Virus record (IMG/VR): IMGVR_UViG_3300029243_000160
Span: 1-64,000 of that record
Strand: one strand, 5' to 3'
Origin: a virus
Length of the DNA: 64,000 bases
A model generated the notes under the pieces. That model saw nothing but the letters and a program-made list of their open reading frames with translations, was not told the DNA's origin and did not search any database. Made by a program: the position numbers and the translations under genes. Position 1 is the first letter of the stretch, and the number at the start of each line of letters is the position of its first letter. Below, piece after piece: positions 2,934 to 54,600 of the stretch.

Positions 2934-3833
2934 TTACCGATTCTCAAAGTGCTTGGTCAGAAGCTCTGATACCAGATTGTCCCACTCTTCTTCGGAGTAG
3001 TTCACGCTGTACTTTTCTGCAAAGCCACTGTAAAGCTTGTTCTTGACTGGTTTTTTCGGTTGCTCCAGAACCGGAAGAAAATCCTCGTAACTTGTCACTT
3101 CCTGCTCCTGTGTGATGCGTTCCATTGCCTTTGCCATAGTACGATTTACTTTCTTTCCAGTCTGCTGAACAAATTCGTATACAGCGTCCTGCTCGTCCGC
3201 AGAGAACCCACAGAAGATTTCTGCGGTATCTGTATGAAGCTTGTCTTCGTCAATCATCTTTTTCAGGTCATCGGTCAAGTCCAGAATCTTGATGTAGCGA
3301 TACAGTGACTTCTTGGAAATTGCAAACTTGTCTGCAATCTCCTGTGCTGTCATGTCAATATCGTTCCGCATTTCCATGTATCGTGCATAGATTTCTGCAT
3401 ACTCTGTCGGCAGCAGTCTGGAACGCTGGATATTGCACTCTGTAACGTATTTGATTGCCTCATCATCTGAAATTTTTCTCACAACGCATGGTACTGTCAG
3501 CATTTCCAGCTCCTTGGCAGCGATGTATCTGTGATGTCCGGAGATAATCTGATACTCTGCTCCGACCTTGCGAACGATAAGCGGTGTTACAATGCCGATG
3601 TCAGAGGCAGACAGCTTGATTTGAGATACCTTTTCCTCAGAGATTTTGAAAGGCTGTGTTCGCCCTCTCTGGTCTGCAAACGGTACAATATGATTTAGTT
3701 CAATATACTGCACTGTTTCTTTGTCTTTACCCCATACGTTGGCATATGCCTGCTCCAGAGCTTCCGGAACAGGCGTTTCAATCTCCTGTTCCTTTCTTGC
3801 CTGCTTCATTGCATTCAAATTGATTTTACCCAT
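2934..3833 (-). CDS. parB: ParB/Spo0J-family partition protein
   Basis: ParB N-terminal domain: GIVTPLIVRK...YQIISGHHRYIAAKEL. HTH region follows. Sits directly downstream of parA. Confidence 0.85.
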   Translation of the reverse strand: MGKINLNAMKQARKEQEIETPVPEALEQAYANVWGKDKETVQYIELNHIVPFADQRGRTQPFKISEEKVSQIKLSASDIGIVTPLIVRKVGAEYQIISGHHRYIAAKELEMLTVPCVVRKISDDEAIKYVTECNIQRSRLLPTEYAEIYARYMEMRNDIDMTAQEIADKFAISKKSLYRYIKILDLTDDLKKMIDEDKLHTDTAEIFCGFSADEQDAVYEFVQQTGKKVNRTMAKAMERITQEQEVTSYEDFLPVLEQPKKPVKNKLYSGFAEKYSVNYSEEEWDNLVSELLTKHFENR

Positions 3834-3858
3834 GTTTCGTCTCTCCTTTTCTCTGTGC

Positions 3859-4635
3859 TTACTCTTCGATGCGATTCAGAATCTCTTCTGATACTCTGGT
3901 GAAAGCAATGCCCATACTGCTGTTCTTGTCATCGACACAGCACTTCTGATTCAGAACTGCCGTTTCACTCTGAGCAGGGCAGAACGGAATCACCGTGTCA
4001 AAGGTCAGCTTTTCATATTCTTCACGCACACTGTCCACGATAGAAGAACTTACATTGGTACGGTTGAACTTGTTCAGCAGGATTCCCAGCACACGCAGAT
4101 TCTTGTTGGTGCTGTTGTTGATAGATGTCACCTTGTTCAGCATCTTTTCCAGTCCGTCAAAACTAAACACGCCGCATTCTACCGGAATCACGATATAATC
4201 GCTGGCGTTCATTGCATTGGAAACGAGCAGGTCAAGCAGTGTTCGGCAGTCAAACAGAATGTAGTCATACTGAGCGTACACATCATTCTGCACAGCACGT
4301 TTCAGCACATAGTTGCTGTCGCTGTCATTCGCCATGAAAGTAGTGATGCCTGTCAGCATCGGGGAAGACGGCACATAGTCAACGCCACTCTCACTGTGTC
4401 GAACAGTGTCTGCATAATCCGTTTCCATGCCTGCGGACAGATTGTAGATTACTTCGGAAATGGTGTACTTACCGTCCTTGATATAACCCAAAGCACGGCT
4501 CGCATTGCCCTGCTGGTCAAGGTCGATTACCAGAACCTTTTTACCTTTCTTTGCAAGTCCTCTTGCAATGTTCAGAGTTGCAGTTGTCTTACCTGCTCCA
4601 CCTTTTTCAGAGCATACAGAAATGATTTTTGCCAT
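3859..4635 (-). CDS. parA: ParA/Soj-family partition ATPase
   Basis: Deviant Walker A (KIISVCSEKGGAGKTT) and VLVIDLDQQGN. Start moved to MAKIIS, which has SD AAAGGAGAG. Confidence 0.9.
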   Translation of the reverse strand: MAKIISVCSEKGGAGKTTATLNIARGLAKKGKKVLVIDLDQQGNASRALGYIKDGKYTISEVIYNLSAGMETDYADTVRHSESGVDYVPSSPMLTGITTFMANDSDSNYVLKRAVQNDVYAQYDYILFDCRTLLDLLVSNAMNASDYIVIPVECGVFSFDGLEKMLNKVTSINNSTNKNLRVLGILLNKFNRTNVSSSIVDSVREEYEKLTFDTVIPFCPAQSETAVLNQKCCVDDKNSSMGIAFTRVSEEILNRIEE

Positions 4636-4657
4636 AGTTTTTCTCTCCTTTTGATAG

Positions 4658-4674
4658 TGTGTCAATTTGACACA
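4658..4674. promoter_or_regulatory. 17-bp palindrome TGTGTCAA-T-TTGACACA upstream of parA (operator or parS candidate)
   Basis: Perfect 8-bp arms, 23 nt upstream of the parA start. Confidence 0.45.
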
Positions 4675-4721
4675 TTTGCATTTATTCTGTTGGTTATTCG
4701 TTATATTTGAGCGTAAAAAAA

Positions 4722-6521
4722 TCACGCTACAGTCAGTAAAAGGCGGTTCTCAATGGGCGATGCCAGATAGTAGTCTGACTTTGCCATCACTTCATTATAC
4801 GCCTTTTCGCCTTGGAAGCTGTCAATAACAGTCTTTTCTTCTGCGGTCATGTCCTTGTAAGACTTCTTACCGTAGGACGGTGGCAACCAACCACGGTTCT
4901 GTGCAGCATAGATGTTGAATCGGTCAATCAGTTCCGGACAGGTGAATGTGATATGCACCGTCCCTTTCTTGTAGAATGTCACCTGAAAGAATTTGCAGGC
5001 AATGTTCTTTGTGATGCCCTGTTCAAAGCTCTTTCTCAGTTCGTTTTCCAGATTGACTTCCGCAGTCATATCACCATCGAAAAAGTTCAGGATTCTTTCG
5101 ATGTCTGCCAGCGTGTTGTATGCTTCGTAAGTACGAGGTTTTCCACTCCAGCTGTCAAAGATGCCATAGCAAGGAAGAATGACTTTCTTTCCGATTTTCC
5201 ATGCCTTATTCGTTTTCCAGCCGTCATACAGATGGCGGTTCTTCTGGCATTCCGGATAATATGCGTGTTCCTCAGTCAGACGGTCATACATCTGTCCGAT
5301 TTCTTCTTCAATCCCCACCTTGATTTTTGTGTTCATCTCCGCAAGCAAAGTGCGAATGTTAAACTCTGAAAAATCGTAGTTCGCATAGCTGGAAGTCTGT
5401 TCTCTGTACTGCTGTTGTAGTGTGCTTGTCAGCTTGCCGACAAACTTCTTGTTGGAAAGCAAAGCCTTCCAGTATTTCAGACGAACACTTTTGACATATT
5501 TGTTTACCGTCAAATCGTGGTCTCTTTCATCTTTCAGCTGAATCAAAGGCTTACTGTATTTCAGTTCGTTTTCATCAAAAGAACTCTCCAGATACGGTTT
5601 CATTCCTTTGTACAAGTGAATCAGCTCCAGACCAGATTTCATTTCAACCTTGTATCTGTTGACAATTGCCTGAATGAAGTCGGCAACTTCAATTTCTTTG
5701 CTCTCGTCCGGAACAAATTCTTCATAATGCTCCGTCTGAGCCATGCGGTCAAAAATATCCTGCTCTGTTTCTTTTTCGGGAACAGCCACCTTGATAAGAG
5801 CTACCTCAACAGCTGTTTTCTTTTCTGCATTGGCAAACTCCTGCTCCAGATACTCAATGGACGCATCGTATTCACTCAACAGGCGAACCAATTCTTTTCT
5901 GGTTGCTGTATACGGATTCCGGATAGTTTCTGCATTGAGCAGGCAGATAACAGAACCACCATGCGTTCTTTGCATCTCCAGAGCTTTCAAAAGGTGTTTA
6001 TCACCATTGGAGAACGGTGGGTTCATCACGATAAGATTGTACTGCTTGAACGGCTCATAAGTGAGGAAATCATCTCCCACAATGTGAATCCCATCGGCAA
6101 AGAATGTCTTCTTTTCTTTTTCAATGGCATTCAGCTGTGCTTCAAGCTCTTCCGGAATCGCAGTATATCCAGTATCTCTGTTATACTGTTTCCACTTCCC
6201 AAAGCGGTTTTCTGCATTAGGGCAACCGCTGTTCTTGATAGTCTCACCCTGCTGACGGTTCAGGCTGTCTTTTCTTTCCTCGGAGAAATTATACCGAAGC
6301 ACCTGTCGCAGACTGGCATCTGCTTCGATGCAATCAATATCCATGTCATGTCTGACGCTCTCGGTTGCCAAAGCAACTTCCCGAAGAATATCGCCCTTTC
6401 CGGCAGACGGTTCAAGGACAGTCTGTACCATGTTCCAGTCAATTCCTGCCAGCATACGCTTTACCAGCGTAGCAGGCGTTGGATAAAATTCATCGTTGTC
6501 TATGGTCTGAATCAATCTCAT
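4722..6521 (-). CDS. orphan N6-adenine DNA methyltransferase (large, with C-terminal extension)
   Basis: SAM motif I (LEPSAGKGDIL) and catalytic MNPPFSNG (NPPF). No adjacent endonuclease. Confidence 0.75.
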   Translation of the reverse strand: MRLIQTIDNDEFYPTPATLVKRMLAGIDWNMVQTVLEPSAGKGDILREVALATESVRHDMDIDCIEADASLRQVLRYNFSEERKDSLNRQQGETIKNSGCPNAENRFGKWKQYNRDTGYTAIPEELEAQLNAIEKEKKTFFADGIHIVGDDFLTYEPFKQYNLIVMNPPFSNGDKHLLKALEMQRTHGGSVICLLNAETIRNPYTATRKELVRLLSEYDASIEYLEQEFANAEKKTAVEVALIKVAVPEKETEQDIFDRMAQTEHYEEFVPDESKEIEVADFIQAIVNRYKVEMKSGLELIHLYKGMKPYLESSFDENELKYSKPLIQLKDERDHDLTVNKYVKSVRLKYWKALLSNKKFVGKLTSTLQQQYREQTSSYANYDFSEFNIRTLLAEMNTKIKVGIEEEIGQMYDRLTEEHAYYPECQKNRHLYDGWKTNKAWKIGKKVILPCYGIFDSWSGKPRTYEAYNTLADIERILNFFDGDMTAEVNLENELRKSFEQGITKNIACKFFQVTFYKKGTVHITFTCPELIDRFNIYAAQNRGWLPPSYGKKSYKDMTAEEKTVIDSFQGEKAYNEVMAKSDYYLASPIENRLLLTVA

Positions 6522-19991: not shown

Positions 19992-20108
19992 GGATTTTCA
20001 TTCCTTTCATTCCTTATCTTTTAGCCTGTCAGCGGACTTGTGACCGCTTGTCAGTCGCATTACTTGCAACCGACATTTGTGTCGGTCGCAATCACTCTGC
20101 GTTGCAGG

Positions 20109-28918: not shown

Positions 28919-29308
28919 CTATTCCTTTTCGGCTCGTTCTGAGCCGTCCTGAGCGTCTGTAGACGCTTTCAAATCCTTTGTGCTGATAATTACTGATGGC
29001 AGAGCATCAAACGCTTTCATAATCTCAATTGGCTGTCTCTCTTCTGGGATAATCTCACAGATGCGGTACACGCTTTCCATGAATTTATCTCTGTAGAGTG
29101 TCTTGTTGATGTAAACACTGCTGTCATTCAGATAAGCATTCACAATCTCTTCGATGACATTAGTTGTGATGTCGGTGGGATTCCGCTTTCCTGTGATGTA
29201 GCAGGCAAGCGTGTTTTGTGGAATTTTGGTCAATGCAGAAAGTTCACGATAACTAAGTCCGGATTTCTTCCAAGCATCACGAACTCTCTCGGAATTTATC
29301 TTCTGCAA
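28919..29308 (-). CDS. XRE-type HTH DNA-binding protein
   Basis: The N-terminus (AWKKSGLSYRELSALTKIPQNTLACYITGKRNP) is a classic HTH_3 pattern. Confidence 0.6.
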   Translation of the reverse strand: MQKINSERVRDAWKKSGLSYRELSALTKIPQNTLACYITGKRNPTDITTNVIEEIVNAYLNDSSVYINKTLYRDKFMESVYRICEIIPEERQPIEIMKAFDALPSVIISTKDLKASTDAQDGSERAEKE

Positions 29309-29551
29309 TTACTTCCCCTTTCCGGCAAGCTCTGCATCGCTGATAGCATGGTCTGCCTCATAAATAATGTTGTACAGCAGATTCATCGGACTGATGCCGT
29401 AAATGTTTGTTGTGATGGACACGATTTTTGCGTGTGCATCTTTCAGCGAATCAACCGTATGATTCACAGTGGATTCAATCCTGCCAATATCATTTGTAGA
29501 ATTGAATACCACAACTTTCAAGTATCTTGAACGATAGTTTTTGTTTTCCAT
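29309..29551 (-). CDS. hypothetical protein
   Basis: 80-aa ORF abutting the HTH gene. Weak resemblance to Cse60-type small proteins; not relied on. Confidence 0.4.
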   Translation of the reverse strand: MENKNYRSRYLKVVVFNSTNDIGRIESTVNHTVDSLKDAHAKIVSITTNIYGISPMNLLYNIIYEADHAISDAELAGKGK

Positions 29552-29589
29552 TTTATATCTCCTTTTTTATTTTTCACATACGTTCAGGG

Positions 29590-29856
29590 AATGTACTTAC
29601 ATCTTGCAGATGCCTGCACGGATTTTGTGTGCAGAGTTTCCTGTTGCCATGAGCAACATACCTCACCCTTACATCTTGCACTTACGCACGAGCTGCAACA
29701 GCAAAGATGTACATATTTACAAGATGCCTGCACGGATTTTATGTGCAGGATTTCAAACTGCATCTTGCAGTTTACCTTACCGAGAGTGTCTGCTACTCTC
29801 CGAAAAGAGAATTACGCATACTGGTTTCGATTCAAGGACGCTAAGTCGCCCTGATT
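29590..29856 (-). ncRNA. orphan second copy of the Cas12f-like scaffold RNA, with one degenerate repeat (29661-29699) and a partial third hairpin copy (29614-29634)
   Basis: 29700-29856 aligns along its length with 31294-31450, with compensatory changes in two hairpins. The strand is inferred from the nuclease-linked copy. Confidence 0.5.
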
Positions 29857-30061
29857 GCAAAGTATCAATAAAAGCATCAATACATTAGTCATCTGAACAG
29901 GAGTTGCACCTGTTAAATTGCTACCAATCAGACGATAAGTAATCCGGAATCACAGCACCGTGGAACTGCTGTCCGAATTACAATAACCCAACACAAAAAC
30001 GCAAAATCACGGAAATACTCACATTCTGCCACGGTGATTCAATCGTGTATGAAAAGATTGA

Positions 30062-30123
30062 AGCCAACAACAGGAATCGAACCTGTATCTCTCTGTAATG
30101 CTCTGCCATTGAGCTATGTCGGC
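30062..30123 (-). ncRNA. tRNA-like element lacking an anticodon arm
   Basis: GCCGACA acceptor, TAGCTCAATGGCAGAGC D-arm and ACAGGTTCGATTCCTGT T-arm, but only 13 nt where the anticodon arm and variable loop should be. No CCA. Confidence 0.5.
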
Positions 30124-31054: not shown

Positions 31055-31083
31055 ATTATAGCACGGTAGTGTACAAATGTCAA
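31055..31083 (-). promoter_or_regulatory. class-P consensus promoter copy 4 (drives the ERF gene)
   Basis: TTGACAtttgtacactaccgtgcTATAAT. Confidence 0.7.
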
Positions 31084-31141: not shown

Positions 31142-31293
31142 GCCTATACGCAGATTGCAACGCTTCACGTTTTCAATGCAGTGATACACCAAGACCTCAC
31201 ATCTTACGCCTATACGCAGATTGCAACTGTGAACGATGTGTTGTAATTACATACCCTAAACCTCACATCTTACGCCTATACGCAGATTGCAAC
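31142..31293 (-). CRISPR. mini CRISPR array: 3 repeats (33 nt, distal one truncated to 20 nt) and 2 unique 33-nt spacers
   Basis: Repeats are at 31261-31293 and 31195-31227 (identical) and 31142-31161. Spacers are at 31228-31260 and 31162-31194. The gene-strand repeat is GTTGCAATCTGCGTATAGGCGTAAGATGTGAGG. Confidence 0.7.
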
Positions 31294-31496
31294 AGCAAAG
31301 ATGTACAAAACTATAAGATGCCTGCACGGATTTTGTGTGCAGGATTTCAAACTGTTCATACACAGTTTACCTTACCGAGAGTATCTACCACTTTCCGAGG
31401 AAAGAATTACGCATACTGTCTCGATTCAAGGACAATGAGTTGCCCTGATTTAGTGCGAACGTCTCAGTTATTCTGTGGGAACTTCCGGTTCGCACT
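31294..31496 (-). ncRNA. tracrRNA/omegaRNA-like scaffold between the nuclease ORF end and the first repeat
   Basis: Hairpins: 31321-31343, 31349-31368 and 31391-31404, plus a 9-bp stem (31452-31460/31488-31496) spanning the stop codon. Anti-repeat segments are AAGATGT (31299-31305) and TAAGATG (31314-31320). Confidence 0.55.
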
Positions 31497-32781
31497 GCAT
31501 TTTTAATGTTTCTTCGATAATAACATCTATATGTTTCGTGCCAATATTCTGGCTCGCATTGTAATCAGCATTTTCTTCATAGCCACATTTCTGGCAGCAG
31601 AATCTCGCCTGTACAGGTCTGTTGTCAGTATGAATGTAACCGCATTTATTGCAACGCTGACTGGTAAACTTCGGGTTGATGTAAACTACCTTGATACCAG
31701 CTTCTTTTGCCTTGCTTTCGATTTTTGTCTGCAAGTCAAAGTACGACCATTCTTTCAGAAAATATTCTGCATTGCTTGTGATGCCTGTCAGCTTTTCCAT
31801 TTGAATCGTACCGCAACCGTTTTTGATTGCATAATCAATCAAGGCTCTGCTGTACTTGTGATTCGTGGTATCACGGAATCTGGCAATTTTATCAGCAATC
31901 TGTGCAGCTGGTTCTGTACGTTTCTTTCTGCCGTGTCCGATACGTCCGTCACCGCAATAGCGTGACTGATTCAAGAGTGAGCGTCTTCTCGCTTCTACAC
32001 GGCTTCGGAAAGCTTCAATTTCACCGCCCTTGATGCTGAATCTGGCGTAATCACCATTGACAGATGCCATGATAGGATAAACGACACCAAGGTCAACGCC
32101 CATGATTTTTTCAGTGTCAAGCGTAGAAATGACATGGTTATCAAAAGAATAGCAAAGGTTCAGTTTCCACAGCTTTTTCTTCTTGTCATACATCAGCTTG
32201 CTTGCACTGACTTTGTATTCATCGTTCATCAACCGTTCCAGAATTGTCCGGACAGACTTATCTCTTACCTGCATACGGAAACGCAGGTCATCTTTGATGC
32301 CGTATTTTTCTTTTCCAGCACGATTCAGCATTTTCAGTGCAACAAAAAAGTTGCCGTTTTCATAGGAAAGCTTAATTGCTTTGTTGTGAATATCCAAAGG
32401 CTGATTTGCCTTAAAAGAGAGTACAGACCGTTCCCCTTTCAGCATTTCCTTTTTGTAATTGCTGAATGCAGTACAGGTGTCTCTGGAAGATGTGGAGAGA
32501 TTGGAAGAATACAGGTCGTTTCCGTTTTTGATACGGTCGTAAACGAATCCGCTTAACGTATATCCAAGAGTATCTTTCTCCTTCGGATATTCTTCTGACT
32601 TTTTGTAGTAGTCGCTGGAGAAGTTCAGCCACTCCCAGCAGAGCTGTACGCATTTGTTCTTGATGTCTCGTGTCTGCCTCTGCAAGTTCCACAGCAATTC
32701 GCTGATTTTCTTAAAATCAATCTTATTGCCGTCCTTGTCGATTTGCTCGCTAATCAGATAGACCTTTGTTACTTTGGTCAT
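31468..32781 (-). CDS. Cas12f-like / TnpB-family RNA-guided RuvC endonuclease (about 437 aa)
   Basis: RuvC-I (MGVDLGVVYP), RuvC-II (GTIQMEKLTG), zinc finger (CNKCG...CQKCG), RuvC-III (ENADYNASQNI) and a GHGRKKR lid-like motif. ATG 32781 has SD AAAGGTGA; an alternative GTG lies at 32790. Confidence 0.85.
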   Translation of the reverse strand: MTKVTKVYLISEQIDKDGNKIDFKKISELLWNLQRQTRDIKNKCVQLCWEWLNFSSDYYKKSEEYPKEKDTLGYTLSGFVYDRIKNGNDLYSSNLSTSSRDTCTAFSNYKKEMLKGERSVLSFKANQPLDIHNKAIKLSYENGNFFVALKMLNRAGKEKYGIKDDLRFRMQVRDKSVRTILERLMNDEYKVSASKLMYDKKKKLWKLNLCYSFDNHVISTLDTEKIMGVDLGVVYPIMASVNGDYARFSIKGGEIEAFRSRVEARRRSLLNQSRYCGDGRIGHGRKKRTEPAAQIADKIARFRDTTNHKYSRALIDYAIKNGCGTIQMEKLTGITSNAEYFLKEWSYFDLQTKIESKAKEAGIKVVYINPKFTSQRCNKCGYIHTDNRPVQARFCCQKCGYEENADYNASQNIGTKHIDVIIEETLKMQCEPEVPTE

Positions 32782-43672: not shown

Positions 43673-44077
43673 TTATGAGATAAGCCGTTCTTTGTCCTGC
43701 TTATTTATCTTAGCTGGCGGTGCTGTTTGAATAACATTCCACTCATCAGCAGGGATAACATAGTCATCGCCGTATTCCTTTTTGATTTCTTCGGGGTCGT
43801 ACACAAAGTCTGTTTCATTGATGTAACATTGTGTACTCAGCTTTTCCCTTCCAACCGTTCGGAGAAAATCCCAAGCAGGCATTCCATACGGTTTGAAAAA
43901 ACCAAAGAACAAAATCAATCCGGCAGGCGGTATTGCAATTTCAATGCTTCCTGTCAGCTTGTAAGTCAAAAATCCTACAGCCGCACCAGCAGCAAGAAAC
44001 GCCGCTTCTTTGAAGGAGAAATTGCCAATATCCTTTGTTTTGTATTTTCTGATGTCTTGTCCAATCAGAATTTCCAT
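43673..44077 (-). CDS. PrgI-family (VirB3-like) T4SS membrane protein
   Basis: N-terminal QDIRKYKTKDIGNFSFKEAAFLAAGAAVGFL matches the PrgI pattern (PKD...K-K...T-RQ + TM). Confidence 0.6.
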   Translation of the reverse strand: MEILIGQDIRKYKTKDIGNFSFKEAAFLAAGAAVGFLTYKLTGSIEIAIPPAGLILFFGFFKPYGMPAWDFLRTVGREKLSTQCYINETDFVYDPEEIKKEYGDDYVIPADEWNVIQTAPPAKINKQDKERLIS

Positions 44078-44095
44078 TGCCTTTCACTCCTTTCA

Positions 44096-44124
44096 CTATA
44101 TATATGTAAGAATTAAAGGAAAAA
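44096..44124 (-). promoter_or_regulatory. class-R motif copy (CCTTTAATTCTTACATATATA on gene strand)
   Basis: Related to the 36-nt motif at 48537 and 62270. Lies directly after a terminator and before prgI. Confidence 0.3.
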
Positions 44125-44142
44125 CGGAGCGTTTCTGCTCCG
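44117..44142 (-). terminator. intrinsic terminator after the VirB6-like gene
   Basis: ACGGAGC-loop-GCUCCGU followed by U5. Confidence 0.55.
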
Positions 44143-44174
44143 TTTCTGAAAATTATTTTGTGAACTTTTTTCTT

Positions 44175-45032
44175 TTACGCTCCAAGTGCTTCTTTGCTCA
44201 CTTGTTTTGCAACATTAGATGCTGCAATTGCTGCAAACGGTGCTACCAGATACATCAGCAAGCAGCTCAATCCTGCCACGATGTCAGGGTCGCCACCAGC
44301 ACCTGTAAGAGCCGCCAGCTGTTCTGTTGTCATCGCAGTCGCAAGTGTTAAAGCAATCCGAGGCAACGCAACCAGTGCCACACCATAAAGCCCAAGTGCA
44401 AGGAATCCTTTGATATAGCGAATTGCGTTGGAGTGTCTGCCACCATAAATGTCAGCCACTGCAATCGGCAAAACAGAAAGTCTGAACAGCAGTTCCAACT
44501 TATACATCATGCCCTTGTACCACCATACCAATTTCAGTACCAATCCGATAATTGCTGTAAGCATTAGGATAATCAGCACAACAAGCAAAATGAAGAAACC
44601 AAGTTTCCCAAACATCTCCATCAGCTTTGTCATGACTTCTGCAAGGTCGGCTTGTGTTGTATCTCCGGCTTTTGCAAGATTTGAAATTTTTGTGATGAAT
44701 GTATCATTGAACATGATAATGCTCGAAACAATTTTTCCGCTTTGTGATATAACTGCAATTGCAACCATCAATTTCAAAAATGGTGCAAAGAAGCTCTTCA
44801 TCGTCAAATCTCTGCCTTCCAAGGCGAGCTTTTCGTTCATTTCCATCAGGAAATAGACCAAAGTAAAAGCAATGCCTGCAATAGCCAAATAGTTGTATAT
44901 TTCTTTGACAATAGAGGTCATTTTATCCCAGTCTCCACCGCCTTGAATTGTGACATACTTTGCGTCAAGGCTACACGCCTGTGCAATTACTGTTGTCACC
45001 AAGTTCAGCACCCACTCAACCGCTTTTTTCAT
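44175..45032 (-). CDS. polytopic membrane protein, VirB6/TrbL-like T4SS channel component
   Basis: 285 aa with at least 6 TM helices. Position between VirD4 and PrgI. Confidence 0.55.
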   Translation of the reverse strand: MKKAVEWVLNLVTTVIAQACSLDAKYVTIQGGGDWDKMTSIVKEIYNYLAIAGIAFTLVYFLMEMNEKLALEGRDLTMKSFFAPFLKLMVAIAVISQSGKIVSSIIMFNDTFITKISNLAKAGDTTQADLAEVMTKLMEMFGKLGFFILLVVLIILMLTAIIGLVLKLVWWYKGMMYKLELLFRLSVLPIAVADIYGGRHSNAIRYIKGFLALGLYGVALVALPRIALTLATAMTTEQLAALTGAGGDPDIVAGLSCLLMYLVAPFAAIAASNVAKQVSKEALGA

Positions 45033-45055
45033 ATGTTTTTGCTCCTTTCGTTGAA

Positions 45056-46903
45056 TTATGTTGTAGGCATTATGCCTGTAACATCTTTTTCTTCATCTGT
45101 ATTCAGATTCCTGTAATACAGCTCTGCATTGATTTTCTTCTTTTTGACTGCCTGAACGTCTTTCCAACGGCGATGCTCTGTCAAAAGAAGCTTTCTGCAA
45201 ACGTAAGGAGTAACATCACGAATAATGACAATCTCATCATCACGATTTTTCGCAGGGTCATTGATAGCACCGATTTCATCAATGCTCATGAGGTCTACTT
45301 CGGTCGGCGTGTATGACGTTGATACTCCTGATTGACTGGACGATGTTGACTTCTGACGAATTGTAGTCTTGCCAAGCATTTTCTGAATCTGTTCTTTATC
45401 TTCCTTTAAGATAGAACCAAGGAAAATCGTTGTATCTACATTGGCAAGCACGGTTTCATGTTCTCCGTCCTTATACATCGTTTTCAGCTGTCCAATATCC
45501 TGAATTACTACATGAGAGCCGATGCGGTACTTACGGCTTGTTGACAAAATCGTTAAGAAGTTCGGGATTTCACCGATATTCTTAAACTCGTCCAGCAAGA
45601 AGTTGATATGAATAGGAAGCGAAGGGTCGCCACCAGCAAACTCATCTCCAGCCCATATGTACATCTTGTCCATATCTTTGATAAGTGTTTCAAGCGGTTC
45701 TCGAAGAACGCTGGACTTGTAATACTTCATTCCTTTTCGTTTGCCGGAAGCATCTTTTTCCGGTGAATTGAAAGCAATGTGATAAATAGAAGTGTTATTC
45801 ACATAGGCTTCTTCAACAATATTATCCTCTGTCACAGTCTCATAAAACATCTTTGCTTCTTCTTCGGAATCGAAGTAATCGAACACCGGAGTTCCCACTC
45901 TGTACCCGATATGCCATTTTCCCCGAAGCTTTCGCTCTCCCAGTTCATAAAGCCGTCCATACAGCTGCGAATACAGCATCGCAATCAAGAAGTTGAACGC
46001 CTGATGCGACTGCGGAATACCAAGAAACAGATACGACTGCTGGGTTGCCATCTTGTCAATGTTGATATTCATGTTCTTGTACTTCTTATTGGTGCGAGTA
46101 ATCATGTCCACTTCATAAGTGGAGAATATCTGCAAATCGACCGCTGTAGTAATCAAGATGGTATTTGCTGTCTTCTGCGGAGCAATCAGGAACGTATCAT
46201 AATACAGCTTTGTTTTGTTGTTCGGGAAACGCTTGAAGAAATCGTCCAGCCGACAAGTAAGAGGTGATTTTGTTTTTCCATCATCGCTTACCTTTGCTTC
46301 CTGAACCAATTTCAAGATTGTAGAAAAGCATCTTCCACCGTTCAATCGCTGTGTTCTGCCACCTTTGATGCCTTCACAAGGGAATCCATCAAGGAGCAGG
46401 TCTTCATCTTCTTCCAGAACATAATAAATCAGTGCCGTCATGAATGCTTTTTCTGACTTGTCCCAGAAGGGGTCTCCACCGCCAGCTTCCTTGCCAGCCT
46501 TCGCATTTTTCATGTAAAGGTCTACCAGAATGTTGACCTGTGTTTCTGAGATGTTGCCATAGCTGTCAAACACATTCTCCAGCGGATTATAATTGTTAGA
46601 CAGCGTAAAGTCTGAGGCATTGAACAGGAATACGTTATATCCTTTGGAAAGCAGATACGGTGCAAACGAACGAAAAATATCTCCGGAAGGGTCTGTGACC
46701 ACCATAGAGCAGTTTTCCTGCAAGATGTTCGGTTTGATATATTTGAACGTCTTACCTGTACCAGTGCCACCGATAACCAGCACATTCGCTGAACGGTTGA
46801 CTTTCTTGTTATTTAACGACAGCCCCAAATATTCGCCTTTGTATACGCCAAACAGCATATTGTTGTCGATATAAGAGCTGTCTTGTACTTTACTTTTTGC
46901 CAA
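45056..46903 (-). CDS. virD4: VirD4/TraG-family type IV coupling protein
   Basis: Walker A (VIGGTGTGKTF) then MVVTDPSGDI, and Walker B (HINFLLDEF). 615 aa. Confidence 0.85.
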   Translation of the reverse strand: MAKSKVQDSSYIDNNMLFGVYKGEYLGLSLNNKKVNRSANVLVIGGTGTGKTFKYIKPNILQENCSMVVTDPSGDIFRSFAPYLLSKGYNVFLFNASDFTLSNNYNPLENVFDSYGNISETQVNILVDLYMKNAKAGKEAGGGDPFWDKSEKAFMTALIYYVLEEDEDLLLDGFPCEGIKGGRTQRLNGGRCFSTILKLVQEAKVSDDGKTKSPLTCRLDDFFKRFPNNKTKLYYDTFLIAPQKTANTILITTAVDLQIFSTYEVDMITRTNKKYKNMNINIDKMATQQSYLFLGIPQSHQAFNFLIAMLYSQLYGRLYELGERKLRGKWHIGYRVGTPVFDYFDSEEEAKMFYETVTEDNIVEEAYVNNTSIYHIAFNSPEKDASGKRKGMKYYKSSVLREPLETLIKDMDKMYIWAGDEFAGGDPSLPIHINFLLDEFKNIGEIPNFLTILSTSRKYRIGSHVVIQDIGQLKTMYKDGEHETVLANVDTTIFLGSILKEDKEQIQKMLGKTTIRQKSTSSSQSGVSTSYTPTEVDLMSIDEIGAINDPAKNRDDEIVIIRDVTPYVCRKLLLTEHRRWKDVQAVKKKKINAELYYRNLNTDEEKDVTGIMPTT

Positions 46904-46922
46904 AACTTACCCTCTTTTCTCT

Positions 46923-47813
46923 TTATTTTTCCATGAACTTATTCTTGTACACCTTAAAATCCCTTGAAGTGCCAAGGTGAGAAGAACCATGCTCATGTCC
47001 AACACGAGATTTTTTCTTCGCATCAGAATCCAGCCAGATAAACAAGCCGATTACGCCAAGGATTCCTGCTCCGATTGCAAACGCTCCAAAGAATGTTGCC
47101 GTGTCAAGTGGTGTTACTGAAATCGGTAGATTTTCTACTGTAAGCCAACTAAATGTGCATGACATAACACCGTTTGTCTTGCCACCTTTATAGTTGTAAT
47201 AAGAATTTGCTTCCACGCCAAAGAAAATTCCTACTGCACAGCAGGCTATCAAAAACAGGAACAGCTTTTTCAAGCCACCGCCTTGCGTTGACGGCTTTGC
47301 AAAAGACACTTTCGGCATCACAGCTGAATTTTTGTACTGCCGAGCATGAGGGTCTTTCGGAGAAGTTCGCTCCAGTTCCTCTGTTGCTCCCTTTAACGCA
47401 TCGAGAGCAATTCGTTTTCCCTCAATTTCAAGAGCCTGCTTATTGTCTTCTGATTCTTTTTGCAATTTTTCATTCTGCAAATCTTCTGCCGTTGCATATC
47501 GCACTTCGTCCTCGTGAACAACGTCTTCTGCTTTTACAGATTCATCAAGGACATTCTGTACTGCATTTGTCTGTGATTGAGAATCCACAGACTTCTGTAA
47601 ATTTGCAACCGTGTCCATATGTTTCGCCTGTTCCTGTGAAAAGAATCCTTTCTTTTCCATGTTGGTCATGACAGAAGTATCACAAATATTGCCGATTGTT
47701 TCGTAATCTTCGTCCTCGTCATTTGAGGCAGCAGGCTGTTGCTCCGGCAAAGAACCAGTGGCGAATATGTCTTCATAATCTTCTGTGAAGTTGCTAAACT
47801 TTTTTTCGCTCAT
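46923..47813 (-). CDS. membrane protein
   Basis: Start MSEKKF via ATGA overlap with the upstream stop. Acidic N-terminal half and two C-terminal TM helices. Confidence 0.45.
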   Translation of the reverse strand: MSEKKFSNFTEDYEDIFATGSLPEQQPAASNDEDEDYETIGNICDTSVMTNMEKKGFFSQEQAKHMDTVANLQKSVDSQSQTNAVQNVLDESVKAEDVVHEDEVRYATAEDLQNEKLQKESEDNKQALEIEGKRIALDALKGATEELERTSPKDPHARQYKNSAVMPKVSFAKPSTQGGGLKKLFLFLIACCAVGIFFGVEANSYYNYKGGKTNGVMSCTFSWLTVENLPISVTPLDTATFFGAFAIGAGILGVIGLFIWLDSDAKKKSRVGHEHGSSHLGTSRDFKVYKNKFMEK

Positions 47814-48508
47814 TGATTTTTCTCCAATTTCCAAGTTTCTTCTGTGAAGTTGTCAGGTACAACTTCTTCGATGCTCTCTGCCGCCTTTTTGATGATGTAA
47901 AGCACCAGCTTAAATGTCGATGTCTGGTCAAGTTCCAATGCACGATACAGCAATTCTTTGTGCATCTGTTCATCAGAACCTTTTGAAGTGTAAAAGACGG
48001 AAAATTCTTTGTCCTTATAAGAAATTTCCCATGCTCCGATTTTGCATTCGCCATGAAGTACATAGTCCACAAAATACATAAAGCCGATGTCCTTCGCACT
48101 CTCCACTGGTTCAGCCAGATTGCTGGAAACAACACACTGTTCTGTAATTACCATCAGCTGAGAAATTACGCCCATGTCATTGATATACAATGGTTTGTTG
48201 GATTCCTTCGGCATATAGGTATGAATTACCTCTGTGTTGGAATACAACTCATAAGACTGCATCGAGCAAATTACTGGCGTATGGATTTCTGCCAGTTCTG
48301 CTTCGATTCGCTGAACGTCCACAAATTCACTGGTTACACCATAAATTTTCCTGAGTTCTACGCCAAACATTTTGTTTTGTACAGTTTCTACTGCACATTC
48401 CACCTTGTCCAAGTCGTATTTGTTTAGGATAAGATACAGCAGTAAGATTCGCTCTTTGTTGTCTTGCCTGCGGTATTTATTGAACATTTCTTCTGCCATA
48501 AGAAGCAC
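47810..48508 (-). CDS. hypothetical protein
   Basis: 232-aa ORF. Confidence 0.45.
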   Translation of the reverse strand: MLLMAEEMFNKYRRQDNKERILLLYLILNKYDLDKVECAVETVQNKMFGVELRKIYGVTSEFVDVQRIEAELAEIHTPVICSMQSYELYSNTEVIHTYMPKESNKPLYINDMGVISQLMVITEQCVVSSNLAEPVESAKDIGFMYFVDYVLHGECKIGAWEISYKDKEFSVFYTSKGSDEQMHKELLYRALELDQTSTFKLVLYIIKKAAESIEEVVPDNFTEETWKLEKNQ

Positions 48509-48536
48509 CTCTTTCTGTAAACAGGCATAACGATGC

Positions 48537-48572
48537 CTCTACCCTTTATATGTAAGGTTTAAGGGAAAAACA
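48537..48572 (-). promoter_or_regulatory. class-R motif copy (36 nt, 35/36 identical to 62270-62305)
   Basis: The gene strand reads TGTTTTTCCCTTAAACCTTACATATAAAGGGTAGAG. CCCTT/AAGGG arms flank a TATAAA. Confidence 0.4.
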
Positions 48573-48602
48573 AAACAGCCCCTGTGGAATGATTCCACAA
48601 GG
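48566..48602 (-). terminator. intrinsic terminator after the giant gene
   Basis: CUUGUGGAA/UUCCACAGG stem followed by a U-rich tract. Confidence 0.55.
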
Positions 48603-48623
48603 ACTGCCTTGCAACATTATTGC

Positions 48624-51600
48624 TTATTTTTCTTTACGAGCTTCCTCAAATGCCTTGTACTTGTCACAATCAAAACGATAAAGCCAAGTCTTGCCATCAG
48701 GATTCTTCACATAGTAGTATGTTTTTGTTTTACCGATATTGCAAAGTGACGTTGCATCGGTTCTACGCAGATAAATCGTGCCAATATCTTTGTTCGGACT
48801 AAGGTCTACCGTCAAAGACTGTCCTGCTTTAATGGTTGTACCATCAGACAATTCCAAATCTTCGTTCAGTTCACCGATGTAAACAACTGCCAAATCTCTC
48901 TTCATCATCAGCAGTGCTTCGTTTGAGCCAGAATTGTTGATTTCATTCACATCATTTGCATCAATATTTACATTATCGCTGCTCACCAATGCTCCAGCAC
49001 TAACGCTTCTGACATGACGGATAATGTCCGCTGGCAAATACAAGCTTGCACTCGGAGACTTGATTGCCTTCGAGTTATCAATCGTGTTGCTCTGAGTTGC
49101 TGTCTGTCCTGTCCATGAAGAATACATACGAATGAAATCCCATGCTGTTCCGGCAGTGCAGTTTGCATTAAAGTTTCTGTCAGCAGCTACACAATAGCTC
49201 TGAACCAGACCATGATTATGTCCATCTTCATCATTGTAATGAGCCTTGCCGACCCAGCTAAGAGCAATTCTTACCGCCTGTTCTCTGCTGTCATTAAAGC
49301 TTGAACCGTACTTCTTTTTCAAAGCATCTACGATTTTATCAATGTCTTCCTGACACAGGACTTTTGCACCGAGTTCAGTCGGAATGTCAAATTCATATAC
49401 ATCTTGCCAATCCATCGTCTGCCTCAAAACCGCAAGCGTCATGTTATCACCATTCCAGCCTTCGTAGTCGTCCCAATCCTTTGTACCAAAGCAGTTTGAA
49501 CCCTTCAAAACCATTTCATCAACGTCAAAGATGTCTCGGCATAGATACTGCTTATTTTCTTCACTGTCGGATTCACCAACAACATGGAAGCCTTCTTTCC
49601 AATTGCCACCTTCCACATACAAGTTCAGTCCATAGCTGTGTCCCATATAACTTCCTTGTACATCAGATGCTGGTGTTTCACTGCCACCAGACCAAGCCGC
49701 ATCAGAAACAGTGCCACTGTAGTTCACTTTATCCGTAATCACCTTGCCACGAATTTCATCATATCTGTCATCAGACCAATCCATCTGAACAGGGAACTGA
49801 TAATCTTCGTTGTATGTGCCAACAAGTGCAAGCTGTTCGTTTGTCATGGAGAATACGTTGCCTCTGGAGATAACACCAAGATGACCGCCACAATACTGGT
49901 AAGAATGTCCCTTACACTTTCTTGTCAGAGTAGTTGTACTATCTCGGTATATCTCAATAGAGCCATTCTCATAGCGATACTGTTTTTTATATTGTTTAAT
50001 GTTTGTATTCACTTGAATTGCAACTCTATACCAGATTACGCTTGTGAGCAAATCGTATTCATCTTGATACGATTGTCCAGTATATCCTCTCGCCGTCAAC
50101 ACTCTGCCAATCATGTAATTAAGGTCGTCCCAGCTCATGTAATTTGTAACAAAAGTAGTGTTGATATGATACACATTACCGCCTGCCTGATAACGATTTT
50201 TCACTTTTTGATATATTTTATCAATCGTTAGGTAGTTACCAGAGCTATCTTTCAAATAGTTATTGGCAAAATCATTCACGTCTTCATTTTTCGGAATTGG
50301 CATATAAAAATATGCTTTCTCTTTTCCGTTAATGTTATTGTAATTTGTCTGCTCTGCTGACACTTCGTCTTTCCAAGTATCGTTTGTCTTATCTGTAATC
50401 AAATGTGTGCTATCTGTATAATCAAGAATGGGAACTTCTGCTTTTCCGCCTTGCTCATACACATAGCCGTTTCCGGTTGTGTATTTTGTGGCATTTTGTA
50501 TGTATACACATCTTTTTTCCTGCTTGGACGATGTTTGAACTACATTGGTTTTCAATGTGCCAACATTCGGGTTGGAATTACTTTTGGTCGCAAAATCTTT
50601 TGTTAGTCTTGTGACAGAGTAATCTCCTTCCTCTCGGTAAATGTGATAAGCGTCATCTGGCAAATGGTATGTATCTCGATAGCTTCTCAATTTGTTCGAT
50701 ATATCTGTTTTCGCACCACTTTCAGAATCGAACCATTTGCCATTTTTGTTTTGCAAGTTGTAATTGAATATACCACCACTGATTCTAGCACTGCTCGGAT
50801 TAACAGTCTTGCTGCTCCAACACTTGCCACTGTGATTGCTTATCCAAGTAACAACTGCATCAAATGTTGTTTTGTTACTCGTCATACCAGACCATAAACA
50901 CAGGTCGTTCTTACTGCCGTTAAGGTTTTTGTTCGTATCAACAGTAATATCAAAAGCACCTGCATGATTGGTGTAATAGCGTTTGAAGTCAGAGCCAATG
51001 ATATAAGGCTGAGGGCTGTCGTCCGAACTACTTTCAATACCAACATAGAAATCTTCTACTTTTGGATTCGTGCAATAGCCCAGCTCTGCTGCCTCACTTT
51101 CTGACAAACTATCAATTTCGTACTTTGTCCCATCAACCTTTACAGTAGGATTGCCTAAGCGACTGCAATACTTCACGGTATAATCCCACGTCTGCTGATG
51201 TGATGCAGAAAACAGCGTTGCAGTATAGTTCTGCAATGTTTTGTAACTAAAGGTTGTTCCAGAAGCATCTGCCCATGTAATGTAATTCGGCTCAGTATCT
51301 TCTTTGCCACCAAACAAATTTTTGACAAACTCGCTGATGTTATTTCCTAACATCTTGAAAAATCCGGTGAATCTGTTTTTGAAGTTTTCCCAATTCAATT
51401 CCGCAGGAGACATTCCCAGAACATCGCCTAATTCTTTATCAGAATTTGCATCTGTTTCAAACTGGTACATTACATCAGTCATAGAGATAATATCTTTGAT
51501 ATTGCTGGTGTGTCCGCTTTCTGTTGAAGAATAGTACACTGCTTCATCGGCACTGGGACTGAGCTTTCCATAAAGGTTCGCATTTGCAGTCATTCTCAGC

Positions 51601-54600
51601 TCTTTTTCGCCATTGTAAGCATCAAGATAAGTAAGATACTTGGTGTTGTTTGACAATGATGCCACAGCATCTTTCTGATGCCACGGATTGATAGCGATTT
51701 GAGTGTCAGCTTCAAGCAGATTGTCAAAACGCTTCAAATAGTCGGAATAGCTCATGCCCTTTGTGCCATAGGTTACATTTGCTTTATCGTCCCACAAACC
51801 TTCATAGTCAACAATCGTGTCTTTCCATGAGGTTTCCTGTTCTTCCAGCGATTCATACAGCTTATAGCATACAGTATCTTTGTAGGTCTTTGCTGCAAGG
51901 AAGTTGGTGAAAGATTCAATAATAGTCATCACAACAACGAACATGGTCAAGGCTGTCGCAACAAACAAAATGCCGATTGCCACATATTTACCGATTACCA
52001 GCATCGCCTTTGAAACGCCTGCCTGTACTTTCTGCACCAGCATACCGACTTTGCTGTTCATAAACTTTGCTTTGATGCCGTTGATTTTGCCTCTTGCTTT
52101 ACCGAACACGCTGTTTTCAGAGCGTTGCAGTCGAGCCAACTTTTTTTCCTGCTTTGCAAGAAATCTTTCGTTACGCTTCGGATTCGGTTTTGCGGCTTTC
52201 TTTGTTGTCGGCTTCTTTTTCGGTGGCTTTACAGAATCTACATTTTTCAGCCTGTTTGTCTTTTTCACATTGGCAAACTTTGCTTTCATTGCATCTTGAT
52301 GCTTCTGAATCGCCTTGACGGTATTCTTTACACCGTCAGTGGTCTTTCTTGCATATCTGTAAGTCTTTGTACCACCGCTTATCATAGCTCGCATATCTTC
52401 ATCATTGCCAGCAAGCTTTGTAGCTCCAGACATACCTTTCTGAGCCAGCTTTGCGGCAACACCAATATCCAACGCTCCCCATGCTTTCGGATTATTTAAC
52501 TGCATCAGTGCGTTTCTGGTGCTGTTGCTGATTCCCAGTTCTTTCAGTTGCTTCGCTGTAAGATTACCCAGTGCTGCCACATCAAACTTGCCTGTAGCAG
52601 TGATAAACTGATAGCCTTTGCTCTCTGCTCTTTTCAGAAATGCCTCATTGATTTTCAGGACATCAGCTCTTGTAATGCCACCTGCAATAAAATCAAGGTT
52701 AAGGTCTTTTTTCAAGTTCTGAGCAAACTTGTCATATCTTGCGAAAATAGCTTTTTCACCGTCAGACAGCTTCACCTTATTGCCAAGTGATTTCAGCACT
52801 TCCGCATCATCATCAGACAATTTGATTTTGCCTGTTTCCGCAGCGTGTTTCATAGTCTCTGACCATTCAGACAGCACTTTTTTCTGGTGATATACCGAGA
52901 TGCTTTCACCTCTCATCACCTTTTCCAGCACTTTTCTCTGTTCGGCGGTAAACGAAGACTTATTCTTCCGGATAAAGTCAAGCTCCGGCTGTGACAATGC
53001 AATTGTTACAGATGCTCCTAGTGCAATTGCACCTGTGTTGATGGTGTTTTTAATCTCGTCCAGAGAGCCACCATCTCGGAAGCCAGACTTCGTAACGACT
53101 GGAGCAGCATATTCCTGCCGATACAGGTTGTTTTGAATGGTCTGTGCATTACGAACCATTCTCTCCTGCTTCTCGCTGATATGTTCTGTAGCAATTTTCT
53201 TCTTCTTTTTATAGAAGCCTCTTGCCTGATACTCACGGCGAATAAATTCGTCCGGATTTCTGCCACTTTTGATAAAGTCGGCATATCGCTTGTCTTCTTT
53301 CTTGTCGAAAGCGTCCTTACGTTTCTTCTCCTGCTTCGCAAAGTCAGCAAGTTCATCTTGATGTGTAGCATAATATTTGTCTTTCTTTACTTTGTACGCA
53401 TCATCGTATTCCCCTTGCTTTTCTTTTACCTTTTCTTTTCTTCGAGCAGATTCCTGCAAAATCTGTGCCGACTGTGCAACACGCTTATGATGTTCAGCCA
53501 GCACCTTGCCCTTGATTTTTTCATCAGTAACAATTTCGCCGTTGATTACAACCATATCATTGCCAAAAACAATTGCCTTGCCAATGCCACGATTTTTCTG
53601 AGCCGCACCCAGTCGCATTGAAGAACTGCTTCTTTCAAATGTTTCCTGTCGAAGTGTAGCCTCTTCAAAGATTCGCTTATTGGTCGCTACAGCACTGTAC
53701 TTTGCAAGGTCGTTTACAGCATTGATGCTCTTATTGACTGTTTTGCCGAACAGTCCCATCTGTCCAAACGTATATGTGAACAGCTTCTGCTCTTCACTTT
53801 CAACAGCTCGCAGTCCACCCTGTTCCTGTTCATCACGAAGTTCCTGTATTTCCTTGCTTTTATCAGACTGCCCATGAACGCCAGCTTGCTTGACATCTAT
53901 ATCTGTCTTTTCTGTAAAGTCTGCAATCAACTGTTCCGCAGATTTTGCCACATTTCGATAATGTTCCTGCGGTTTTGCAGAAGCACCATGTTTGTCATCA
54001 GTCTGAAACTTTTGATTCAGTGACTGAACAGCACTTTCCGTCCTCATAAAGCTTGCCTTGCTTGCCAAGCTCTTTGCTTCTAAACTGCCGTTAGAATCCC
54101 ACTCTGTACCAGTCTTCGCATGAAATTCAGTCGCAATATCGTGCATAGCATTCTGATAGTCCAGAAACATCTGCCGTTCATGCGGAGTGGTGATTTTTCC
54201 TTTTTCCTGAATCGTTTCCATTGCTTCTGCAACGTCAGGGCGGTCTTCCAGAAACTGCCCCATAAACGTAGAATCCATGCTCTTCTGAACAAACGATTTC
54301 TCATTTTCGTTCAGTCGAACCGATGTCATCTCAGGCTCTTTTTGCTGTGTCAAATTGACACTTTCAGCAGCAGAAACCGCACCGCCAAAAGAATTATTTG
54401 TCAAAGCCACAAACTCTTGCATGATTCTGCGGTCATTATCATTTCTTACTTCACCAGTTTCTACGATTCTTTCCAGCGTTTTCATGTTGTCGTAATTACT
54501 CAAAAAATCACTGTACGGAGTAGTTGGTGCTGTATTCTGCGATTCTGCTGATGTTTCTTCAAAACTTGAAGTGTACCCAGAATAAGAAGGAGATGGTTGA

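Follow-up and report, generated by a model that had tools for sequence, protein, structure and literature searches.

The 64,000 nt of DNA analysed here (the window; positions 1 to 64,000 of IMG/VR virus record IMGVR_UViG_3300029243_000160) carry a gene for a Cas12f nuclease and two copies of its RNA scaffold. The first copy, unit A, is linked to cas12f and runs into a clustered regularly interspaced short palindromic repeat (CRISPR) array. The second, unit B (29596-29858, minus strand), is probably a further module of trans-activating CRISPR RNA (tracrRNA) plus repeat belonging to a type V-F (AsCas12f-like) system, which Cas12f would use in trans. An earlier sequence-only reading had described this region as an orphan second copy of the nuclease scaffold RNA, proposing either a fixed-guide RNA used in trans or a decaying duplicate. 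Its sequence observations are all correct at the coordinates given. As it had stated, no nuclease gene abuts unit B; the Cas12f gene lies 1.6 kb upstream on the same strand, with an ERF recombinase gene and a tRNA-like element in between. To judge from the genes present, this single Cas12f is the sole nuclease available to both RNA units, so unit B would indeed have to act in trans.

The unit B scaffold scores 112.9 bits (E ~3e-23) with a covariance model (R1) built from 26 diverse scaffold units, a score equal to that of unit A, and the same model finds exactly two full copies in the window together with a partial third (29610-29719, 29 bits). The identification as a second scaffold copy thus stands, and so does the alignment of 29700-29856 with 31294-31450, which has ~85% identity and no large gaps; blastn against relatives of both copies gives E ~5e-44. 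Unit B also aligns with the published AsCas12f1 single-guide RNA (sgRNA) scaffold, and the scaffold RNA matches no Rfam family. Scaffold copies were collected from IMG/VR, metagenomes and assemblies, and the four-stem structure was scored on 26 distinct units. Standard pairs occupy 95.6% of cells and both sides have changed in 25 of 37 pairs; none of 500 column shuffles is as good, and pairing falls to 31-48% once the partners are slid by 1-3 columns. Comparison of stems 1-4 in copies A and B gives 31 unchanged pairs, three compensatory ones, two with one-sided compatible changes and one broken. The paired substitutions that had been noticed from the sequence are both compensatory: stem 3 is AAACTGT/ACAGTTT in A (31349-31355/31362-31368) and AAACTGC/GCAGTTT in B (29755-29761/29767-29773), and the apical hairpin of stem 2 is CTTTC/GAAAG in A (31391-31404) and CTCTT/GGAGAG in B. 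Stem 4 (CCTGCAC/GTGCAGG) differs solely by C/T in its loop. The covariation among the 26 units, the A/B pair count and the pseudoknot variants described below all support the earlier view that compensatory changes maintain the structure.

The anti-repeat of unit B folds back through a 4-nt loop onto its own repeat, and two contacts between scaffold and repeat differ from those of unit A. The first is a pseudoknot between the stem-1 loop and the four bases that end the repeat, CTTA/TAAG in B and CTCA/TGAG in A. In the clade, CTCA/TGAG is found in unit A and L070, CTTA/TAAG in unit B and many others, CTCG/CGAG in L055 and L065, and CTTG/CAAG in L067 and L012 (L numbers denote individual loci). 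This contact has the general form CTNN/NNAG, is paired in 94% of cells and co-varies at both variable pairs; its AsCas12f1 equivalent, taken from the published sgRNA, is GUUCA/UGAAC. It is consistent with the stacking of repeat:anti-repeat duplex 2 on stem 1 in AsCas12f (bioRxiv 10.1101/2023.07.03.547593). The second contact lies in the repeat:anti-repeat duplex, where an A to G change in anti-repeat B is exactly opposite a T to C change in the repeat, converting an A-T to a G-C pair. RNAduplex gives anti-repeat B -23.5 kcal/mol with repeat B and -13.8 with repeat A, whereas anti-repeat A does not discriminate (-16.6 kcal/mol with repeat A, -16.5 with repeat B); the corresponding cis hairpins have stabilities of -24.1 (B-B) and -17.2 kcal/mol (A-A). 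Because both contacts have changed together, A and B represent two co-evolved tracr:repeat pairs. The repeat had previously been called a degenerate 39-mer (29661-29699). It is present, together with the GTTGC-TCATG-GCAAC hairpin (~29643-29657) and the CTGCAC/GTGCAG hairpin (29614-29634) reported beyond it, but it is 32 nt long (29668-29699) and, by its predicted pairing, diverged and co-adapted to scaffold B rather than degenerate. We also considered unit B as a supplier of tracrRNA for array A, which is unlikely given how poorly its anti-repeat pairs with repeat A.

In the window, the single full repeat of unit B is followed by scaffold-derived sequence and a 12-nt repeat end, which together form the 3' half of a second, compact scaffold (Table 1). 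A 27-nt stretch (29608-29634) comprising the stem 4 copy and adjoining bases matches copy A exactly (31316-31342), the stem designated 3'' retains its pairing relative to stem 3 through three compensatory double changes, and the predicted minimum free energy fold forms all of the compact-half hairpins. Proceeding directly from first repeat to compact half-scaffold, the window allele has no acquired spacer; it thus falls short of a CRISPR array with at least two repeats and acquired spacers, an arrangement that is present in relatives (L008, L212, L216, L220 and L213). The sequence TATGTTGCTCATGGCAACAGG..., previously proposed as the guide, is instead stem 3 of this second, 5'-truncated scaffold. 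The 29596-29667 segment is found in register in other alleles (L054, L218, L219 and L221, and L214, L215 and L217, described below). The sequence 3' of the repeat was also considered as a spacer aimed at the scaffolds of rivals, and this was rejected because the scaffold homology, at 60 nt, exceeds the length of a spacer and keeps the register of the compact alleles.

Unit B was compared among 19 assemblies or contigs of window-type relatives (L001, L008, L071, L053, L054, L212-L221 and four places collapsed onto L212), whose Cas12f proteins are ~98% identical where the gene is present. It is present in all 19 and has five allelic forms. The first is a one-spacer array (L008, L001, L071, L212 with its four similar places, L216 and L220), in which a genuine and identical spacer, TACGGCTC..., lies between two B-type repeats. 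The second (L213) is a two-spacer array with an internal module of stem 4 and anti-repeat. The third is the composite form of the window, also found in L214, L215 and L217 with repeat and anti-repeat variants of their own, which indicates an evolving allele and not a one-off accident. The fourth is compact with a replacement stem 3 (L054, L218, L219 and L221): a GGTRAGGTA-hairpin-stem 4 segment occupies the place of stem 3 inside a single scaffold, and the long distal repeat:anti-repeat duplex is cut to a 6-bp hairpin with a GCA loop, followed by TAAG. The fifth is compact with an ordinary stem 3 (L053). The composite contains two direct-repeat pairs, with GGTRAGGTA and stem 4 each occurring twice, and deletion between one or the other pair can give exactly the two compact forms, a derivation that we infer from the sequences. 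The locus is recombination-prone. In L213 the internal module (L213:2582-3000) consists of a stem 4 variant, CTGTAC...GTACAG, of the sequence type found in elements whose Cas12f is 58% identical, and a 10-nt anti-repeat; on one side of it is a truncated first repeat, on the other two more repeat-spacer units.

These alleles bear on the possibility that unit B is a functionless relic of a tracr-array duplication. The 3' part of unit B is rearranged and polymorphic, the window allele lacks a spacer, no promoter is predicted directly upstream, and close relatives differ more in scaffold B than in scaffold A, all as would be expected of a relic. Decay is nonetheless improbable given a model score equal to that of copy A, a repeat that pairs better with its own anti-repeat than repeat A does with its own, and an A/B comparison in which five double changes are compensatory (three of these lie in stems, one is in the pseudoknot and another in the repeat:anti-repeat duplex) and a single pair is broken. 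Stem 3'' of the compact allele still pairs after three double changes, and unit B is kept in all 19 assemblies. These results contradict that part of the sequence-only reading.

Unit B could instead be a fixed-guide regulatory RNA, as had also been suggested, though for another guide sequence. The compact scaffold ending at 29596 would load Cas12f with an invariant flank, TACATTCCCTGAACGTATGT, and direct it to bind, without cleavage, where the element or its host offers a partial match, much as the long-form tracrRNA (tracr-L), the small CRISPR-Cas-associated RNA (scaRNA) and CreR do. An sgRNA-like end is present: in nine of 20 sequences (the window, three composite and five compact alleles; that is, the window and 8 of the 19 assemblies) a non-spacer flank follows an intact TAAG, and the mini hairpin varies at position 1 (G/A) and position 5 (C/T) with the 6-bp stem kept in 4/4 variants. 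A truncated distal repeat:anti-repeat duplex is moreover tolerated in engineered AsCas12f guides, in which the distal part of duplex 1 is reported to be dispensable (bioRxiv 10.1101/2023.07.03.547593), and by analogy the compact forms would be the natural equivalent of such trimmed laboratory guides. The fixed guide itself is not supported, however, and we consider it unlikely. The array-type alleles carry a genuine, different spacer and a terminal repeat instead of the flank. In the composite and compact alleles the guide position has three variants (TACATTCCCTGAAC-GTATGTG, TACATTCTCTAAACAGTATGTG and CACATTCCCTGAACAGTATGTG), with three substitutions and one indel in 21 nt though the adjoining 80-aa protein is identical. 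Its second role, as the 5' leader of the next gene, is by itself enough to explain the persistence of the flank.

Searches for a target of this flank gave nothing to favour a fixed guide. No second match occurs in the window when up to 3 mismatches are allowed; seed searches of the window with 12-20 nt and mismatches, including the 12-16-nt seeds, give chance-level matches without a TTR-type flank; and no partial target, and none adjoining a protospacer adjacent motif (PAM), was found in the window or in the relatives' loci. The flank, nine spacers of array A and one of array B were compared with GenBank phages and PLSDB plasmids, and none of them matched. Exact-pattern scans of IMG/VR (the L053-type and window-type flanks, spacer A1 and the B spacer) return the arrays themselves or nothing, with no match to the flank, and blastn-short of all 25 spacers against the relatives' loci and the window returns array copies only. 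With no target found in these searches and a variable flank, there is no support for a conserved fixed guide that acts on a regulatory target: natural regulatory guides have a partial, PAM-flanked match to a promoter and are conserved among relatives, and here the window and the relatives' loci contain no such match, the flank has three variants and array alleles have a different spacer.

The position of unit B would also suit a cis-acting leader, in which the scaffold forms part of the 5' untranslated region of the operon of the 80-aa, helix-turn-helix (HTH) and helicase genes, and binding or processing by Cas12f sets translation or stability of the mRNA, with DNA targeting irrelevant. The TAAG end is 44 nt from the ATG at 29551, the minus strand between 29595 and that ATG has no terminator-like site, and some units in the 58%-identity elements likewise abut a ribosome-binding site and ATG. 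Many other units in those elements end in a terminator, however, the array-type allele inserts a spacer and repeat before the gene with no sign of harm, and the literature searched offers no precedent; we regard this reading as very unlikely.

Least likely of all, to the point of being barely credible, is an RNA decoy, an extra scaffold that soaks up Cas12f encoded by the host chromosome in the manner of an RNA anti-CRISPR. Gut Clostridia chromosomes do carry related Cas12f loci (69% identity; L222-L225), and solitary repeat units of viruses have been proposed as decoys of this kind (discussed in PMC10120712). The pseudoknot type and anti-repeat of scaffold B nevertheless fit its own repeat; the chromosomal loci L055 and L065 (CTCG/CGAG) and L067 (CTTG/CAAG) differ from it, in a comparison that leaves out the repeat ends of L222-L225; and the element encodes its own cognate nuclease.

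A module serving Cas12f in trans therefore remains the preferred account of unit B. Its transcription, on the gene strand, would probably depend on read-through from the promoter of the ERF operon: a sigma-70-type promoter in front of ERF (Table 1) is the likely source of a transcript passing through ERF, the tRNA-like element and unit B. The resulting RNA would bind a Cas12f dimer and present the sequence after its TAAG end as guide. In the window's composite form, the compact half has its own 6-bp hairpin and TAAG, which would put the leader of the next gene in guide position, so that the window allele would most likely yield a Cas12f complex with a non-spacer guide, idle or with an unknown target.

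Several observations weigh against this account. The unit B allele of the window has no acquired spacer, and in the composite form two TAAG ends compete for one stem-1 loop. A consensus scan finds no promoter comparable to that of ERF directly upstream of unit B, and no protospacer was found in the databases searched for any spacer of unit A or B. Among near-identical elements, nucleotide diversity (pi) is 0.030 in scaffold B, 0.009-0.015 in its flanks and 0.004 in scaffold A, and thus either B has recently been under weaker constraint than A, or two old haplotypes are still present. By manual count, substitutions between the two B haplotypes are ~7:3 structure-compatible, a ratio not different from chance. 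The case for constraint rests on the older divergence of A and B and on the clade-wide covariation.

Duplication of whole guide modules is not confined to the window-type elements. In elements with 58%-identical Cas12f (IMG/VR 3300045988_183761, _183306, _183327 and 3300029844_000207), 6-10 pattern-matched units per contig are spread over ~70 kb on one strand, each with its own tracr and 1-7 or more repeats; a fifth contig, _183521, has units in the same range of number and spread, also on one strand. The dispersed units of these loci (L009-L014, L026-L052) never adjoin cas12f and have differing repeat and anti-repeat variants, such as CCGCACGTTCGTGCGG and CGCACGTCAAGTGCG. So many units in related elements make multiplication of the whole tracr-array module a trait of the lineage, of which unit B is the two-copy version; no description of such multiplied modules was found in the literature searched. 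By comparison, at chromosomal or metagenome-assembled genome (MAG) loci, where Cas12f is 55-69% identical, a single scaffold joins the first repeat through TTGC-NNNN-GCAA, and there is no second scaffold copy in the flanking DNA examined (5-10 kb on each side where the contig allows). A more speculative proposal, which we put forward tentatively and consider less likely than not, is that the CRISPR system of this lineage grows by copying whole modules of tracr and first repeat, which would be natural single-guide precursors, and not only spacers, giving two orthogonal tracr:repeat pairs in the window and ~10 dispersed modules in related elements; that the B locus is a recombination workshop in which the composite allele gives rise to minimised single guides with a 6-bp repeat:anti-repeat hairpin; and that their non-acquired guide, lying in the leader of the next operon, may be fixed regulatory or the leader Cas12f-responsive. 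A solitary repeat-like 18-mer (L003:2880-2897) lies 1.6 kb upstream of the array at a locus with 37%-identical Cas12f on a 142-kb viral contig.

The nearest characterised system is AsCas12f1 (type V-F1), which has a homologous nuclease (E 1e-117), a scaffold built of matching elements in matching order (stem 1, three-part stem 2, CUCGGUAAGGUA, stem 3, UGAAA, stem 4 with an ACAAAnnCC loop, anti-repeat), a tracr between cas12f and array as in unit A, and a pseudoknot joining the stem-1 loop to the 3' end of the repeat; its engineered sgRNAs with a trimmed distal duplex resemble the compact alleles. Unlike AsCas12f1, the window system has two diverged tracr:repeat pairs per nuclease, the second not beside the nuclease gene, has tracr and first repeat contiguous through a 4-nt loop, has natural compact single-guide alleles, and is carried by a mobile element whose open reading frames, as far as scanned, show no adaptation genes. 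Unit B, which does not lie between cas12f and an array, is not a TnpB omega-RNA (IS200/IS605) either, being away from any nuclease gene and carrying a repeat:anti-repeat pair. Such omega-RNAs overlap the 3' end of their nuclease gene, stop at a transposon end and have no repeats; here the sole overlap with the end of cas12f is that of the extra 5' hairpin of unit A. Viral and plasmid mini-arrays and solitary repeat units share with this system short arrays (1-8 spacers) on a mobile element, here with polarised turnover in array A, and a presumed role in inter-element conflict, which is inferred for the arrays described here, no targets having been found; they differ in that every array here comes with a tracrRNA of its own and the effector, too, is encoded on the element. 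The tracr-L of S. pyogenes Cas9, the scaRNA of Francisella and CreR/CreA likewise combine a diverged repeat with a non-acquired, guide-like flank, and their single-RNA architecture is shared by the compact alleles; in contrast to them, a PAM-adjacent partial promoter match was sought here and not found, the flank is not conserved and other alleles have an ordinary spacer. In type V-K CRISPR-associated transposons, a delocalised atypical CRISPR RNA (crRNA), with a diverged repeat and a guide, lies apart from the main array and is used by the same Cas12; it relies on the system's one tracrRNA, and its homing target is conserved. Unit B differs from it in bringing its own tracrRNA, with no conserved target evident.

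Cas12f is the smallest CRISPR nuclease in genome-editing use and its long guide RNA is the main engineering target; the two co-evolved tracr:repeat pairs and the compact single-guide forms are ready-made designs for orthogonal or shortened guides, and the four-way covariation pins the pseudoknot contact for the whole clade. The unit B locus provides a natural allele series for testing the role of the extra module. More broadly, a very common and uncharacterised mobile element of the human gut has a CRISPR system that multiplies complete guide modules, with up to ~10 per genome in relatives, which raises the question of whether each array requires its own tracr in cis.

Table 1. Coordinates of the unit B and unit A features and of neighbouring genes in the window.
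Feature	Coordinates	Strand	Basis or detail
Unit B scaffold, stems 1-4	29724-29858	-	Covariance model R1; stem-1 loop CTTA 29842-29845
Unit B anti-repeat	29700-29723	-	GCATCTTGTAAATATGTACATCTTTGC (first bases counted from the scaffold end)
Unit B repeat R1, 32 nt	29668-29699	-	GTTGCAGCTCGTGCGTAAGTGCAAGATGTAAG; length by homology with the arrays
3' half of second, compact scaffold	29596-29667	-	Covariance-model partial match 29610-29719
Compact half: GGTGAGGTA	29659-29667	-	
Compact half: stem 3''	29642-29658	-	TGTTGC-TCATG-GCAACA, then GGAAACT
Compact half: stem 4 copy	29614-29634	-	CTGCAC/GTGCAG
Compact half: mini repeat:anti-repeat hairpin	29599-29613	-	GCATCT-GCA-AGATGT, 6 bp
Compact half: pseudoknot strand	29596-29599	-	TAAG (last T of the hairpin plus AAG)
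Guide-position sequence	29552-29595	-	TACATTCCCTGAACGTATGTG...; 5' leader and ribosome-binding site of 80-aa gene
80-aa gene	29309-29551	-	Directly 3' of unit B; ATG at 29551
HTH regulator, then PIF1-type helicase	28919-29308 (HTH)	-	3' of 80-aa gene
tRNA-like element	30062-30123	-	Rfam tRNA, 50.4 bits; between ERF gene and unit B
Sigma-70-type promoter in front of ERF	31055-31083	-	TTGACA-17-TATAAT with TG; 12/12 consensus matches
Array A	31142-31293	-	Period 66 nt; 32-nt repeats, 34-nt spacers
Array A repeat	31262-31293	-	
Array A spacer A1	31228-31261	-	
Array A repeat	31196-31227	-	
Array A spacer A2	31162-31195	-	
Array A truncated terminal repeat	31142-31161	-	
Unit A scaffold and anti-repeat, 159 nt	31294-31452	-	Stems 1-4 31318-31452; anti-repeat 31294-31317
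cas12f gene, 440 aa	31468-32790	-	phmmer against PDB, and Pfam

Unit A has the conventional organization. It scores 112.9 bits with model R1, aligns element by element with the published AsCas12f1 sgRNA scaffold (bioRxiv 10.1101/2022.10.20.513037) and runs directly into the first array repeat through a TTGC-TGTT-GCAA junction, and its layout matches that of AsCas12f1, where the tracrRNA gene lies between cas12f1 and the array (PMC8548392). In front of scaffold A, the sequence shows an extra 5' hairpin, GTGCGAAC/GTTCGCAC (31453-31495, minus strand), that includes the stop codon of cas12f; L065, L068 and L070 have this inverted repeat before their scaffolds as well, whereas unit B lacks it. A promoter-like TTGGCA-16-TATTAT (31517-31544) is situated inside cas12f just upstream of this hairpin.

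Array A has 23 distinct spacers in 15 related elements. Spacers at the trailer end tend to be common and most new spacers adjoin the tracr, a polarised turnover that is the signature of an array still acquiring spacers. Spacer variants in L213/L218 and L215/L219 (window site 31162-31195) differ at positions 7, 16 and 22 and at positions 7, 10, 16 and 25, respectively, spaced by multiples of three, as if one site in a coding gene had been sampled from diverged targets. The first 20 nt of spacer A1, GTTTAGGGTATGTAATTACA (31242-31261), are identical at 17/20 positions to the reverse complement of 29582-29601, the unit B junction TGTAAG/TACATTCCCTGAAC, where the flank is ATAC and not a TTR-type PAM; the spacer may derive from the B-like locus of a rival element or the match may be due to chance. 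Spacer A1 is common to five elements, and the other old spacer, A1 of L008 (common to nine), also starts with TTTTAGGGTGT.

The Cas12f protein matches AsCas12f1 structures in PDB by phmmer (8j12, 7wju and 8dzj; E ~1e-117, residues 23-430) and the Pfam family Cas12f1-like_TNB (1.4e-21), and its RuvC domain is intact, with conserved D/E/D motifs (GxDLG, QME, NADYNA). A scan of a genome collection with this protein returned almost exclusively haloarchaeal TnpB relatives, plus two known MAG loci. Contigs of the relatives with 98% and 82% identical Cas12f stop ~200 nt past cas12f, probably because the duplicated scaffold breaks assemblies.

All substantial open reading frames of the window are on the minus strand. 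The neighbours of cas12f include the ERF recombinase, the HTH regulator, the PIF1-type helicase and an integrase, and RusA and methylases are located elsewhere. The 80-aa protein has no function suggested by PHROGs or Pfam searches; a collection of public assemblies lists its exact sequence in 3347 blocks, on contigs between 200 kb and 1.4 Mb long, and the element is very common in public human-gut assemblies. Genes at 44000-62300 and 2900-4750 encode a Mob_Pre relaxase, a VirD4/TraG-type coupling protein, a VirB4-like ATPase, a 2344-aa product and ParA/ParB. These conjugation and partition genes identify the element as a large integrative or conjugative-type mobile element, though close relatives are catalogued as viral in IMG/VR; no relative was found in PLSDB or among GenBank phages. 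One relative sits within a 1.4-Mb contig, which suggests integration.

The tRNA-like element has intact acceptor, D and T arms and an anticodon arm of 4 nt where the model has 13; ARAGORN calls no tRNA, and the element could serve to direct RNase P/Z processing of the RNA downstream of it. Just 3' of it, an 18-nt segment (30045-30062) is 89% complementary to stem 3 of scaffold A (31346-31363), for which the chance expectation is roughly 0.1-0.2 in a 3-kb region. A twister ribozyme of Type-P5 (Rfam RF02684) is located at 20032-20101 (minus strand), with 54.8 bits against a gathering score of 37.6.

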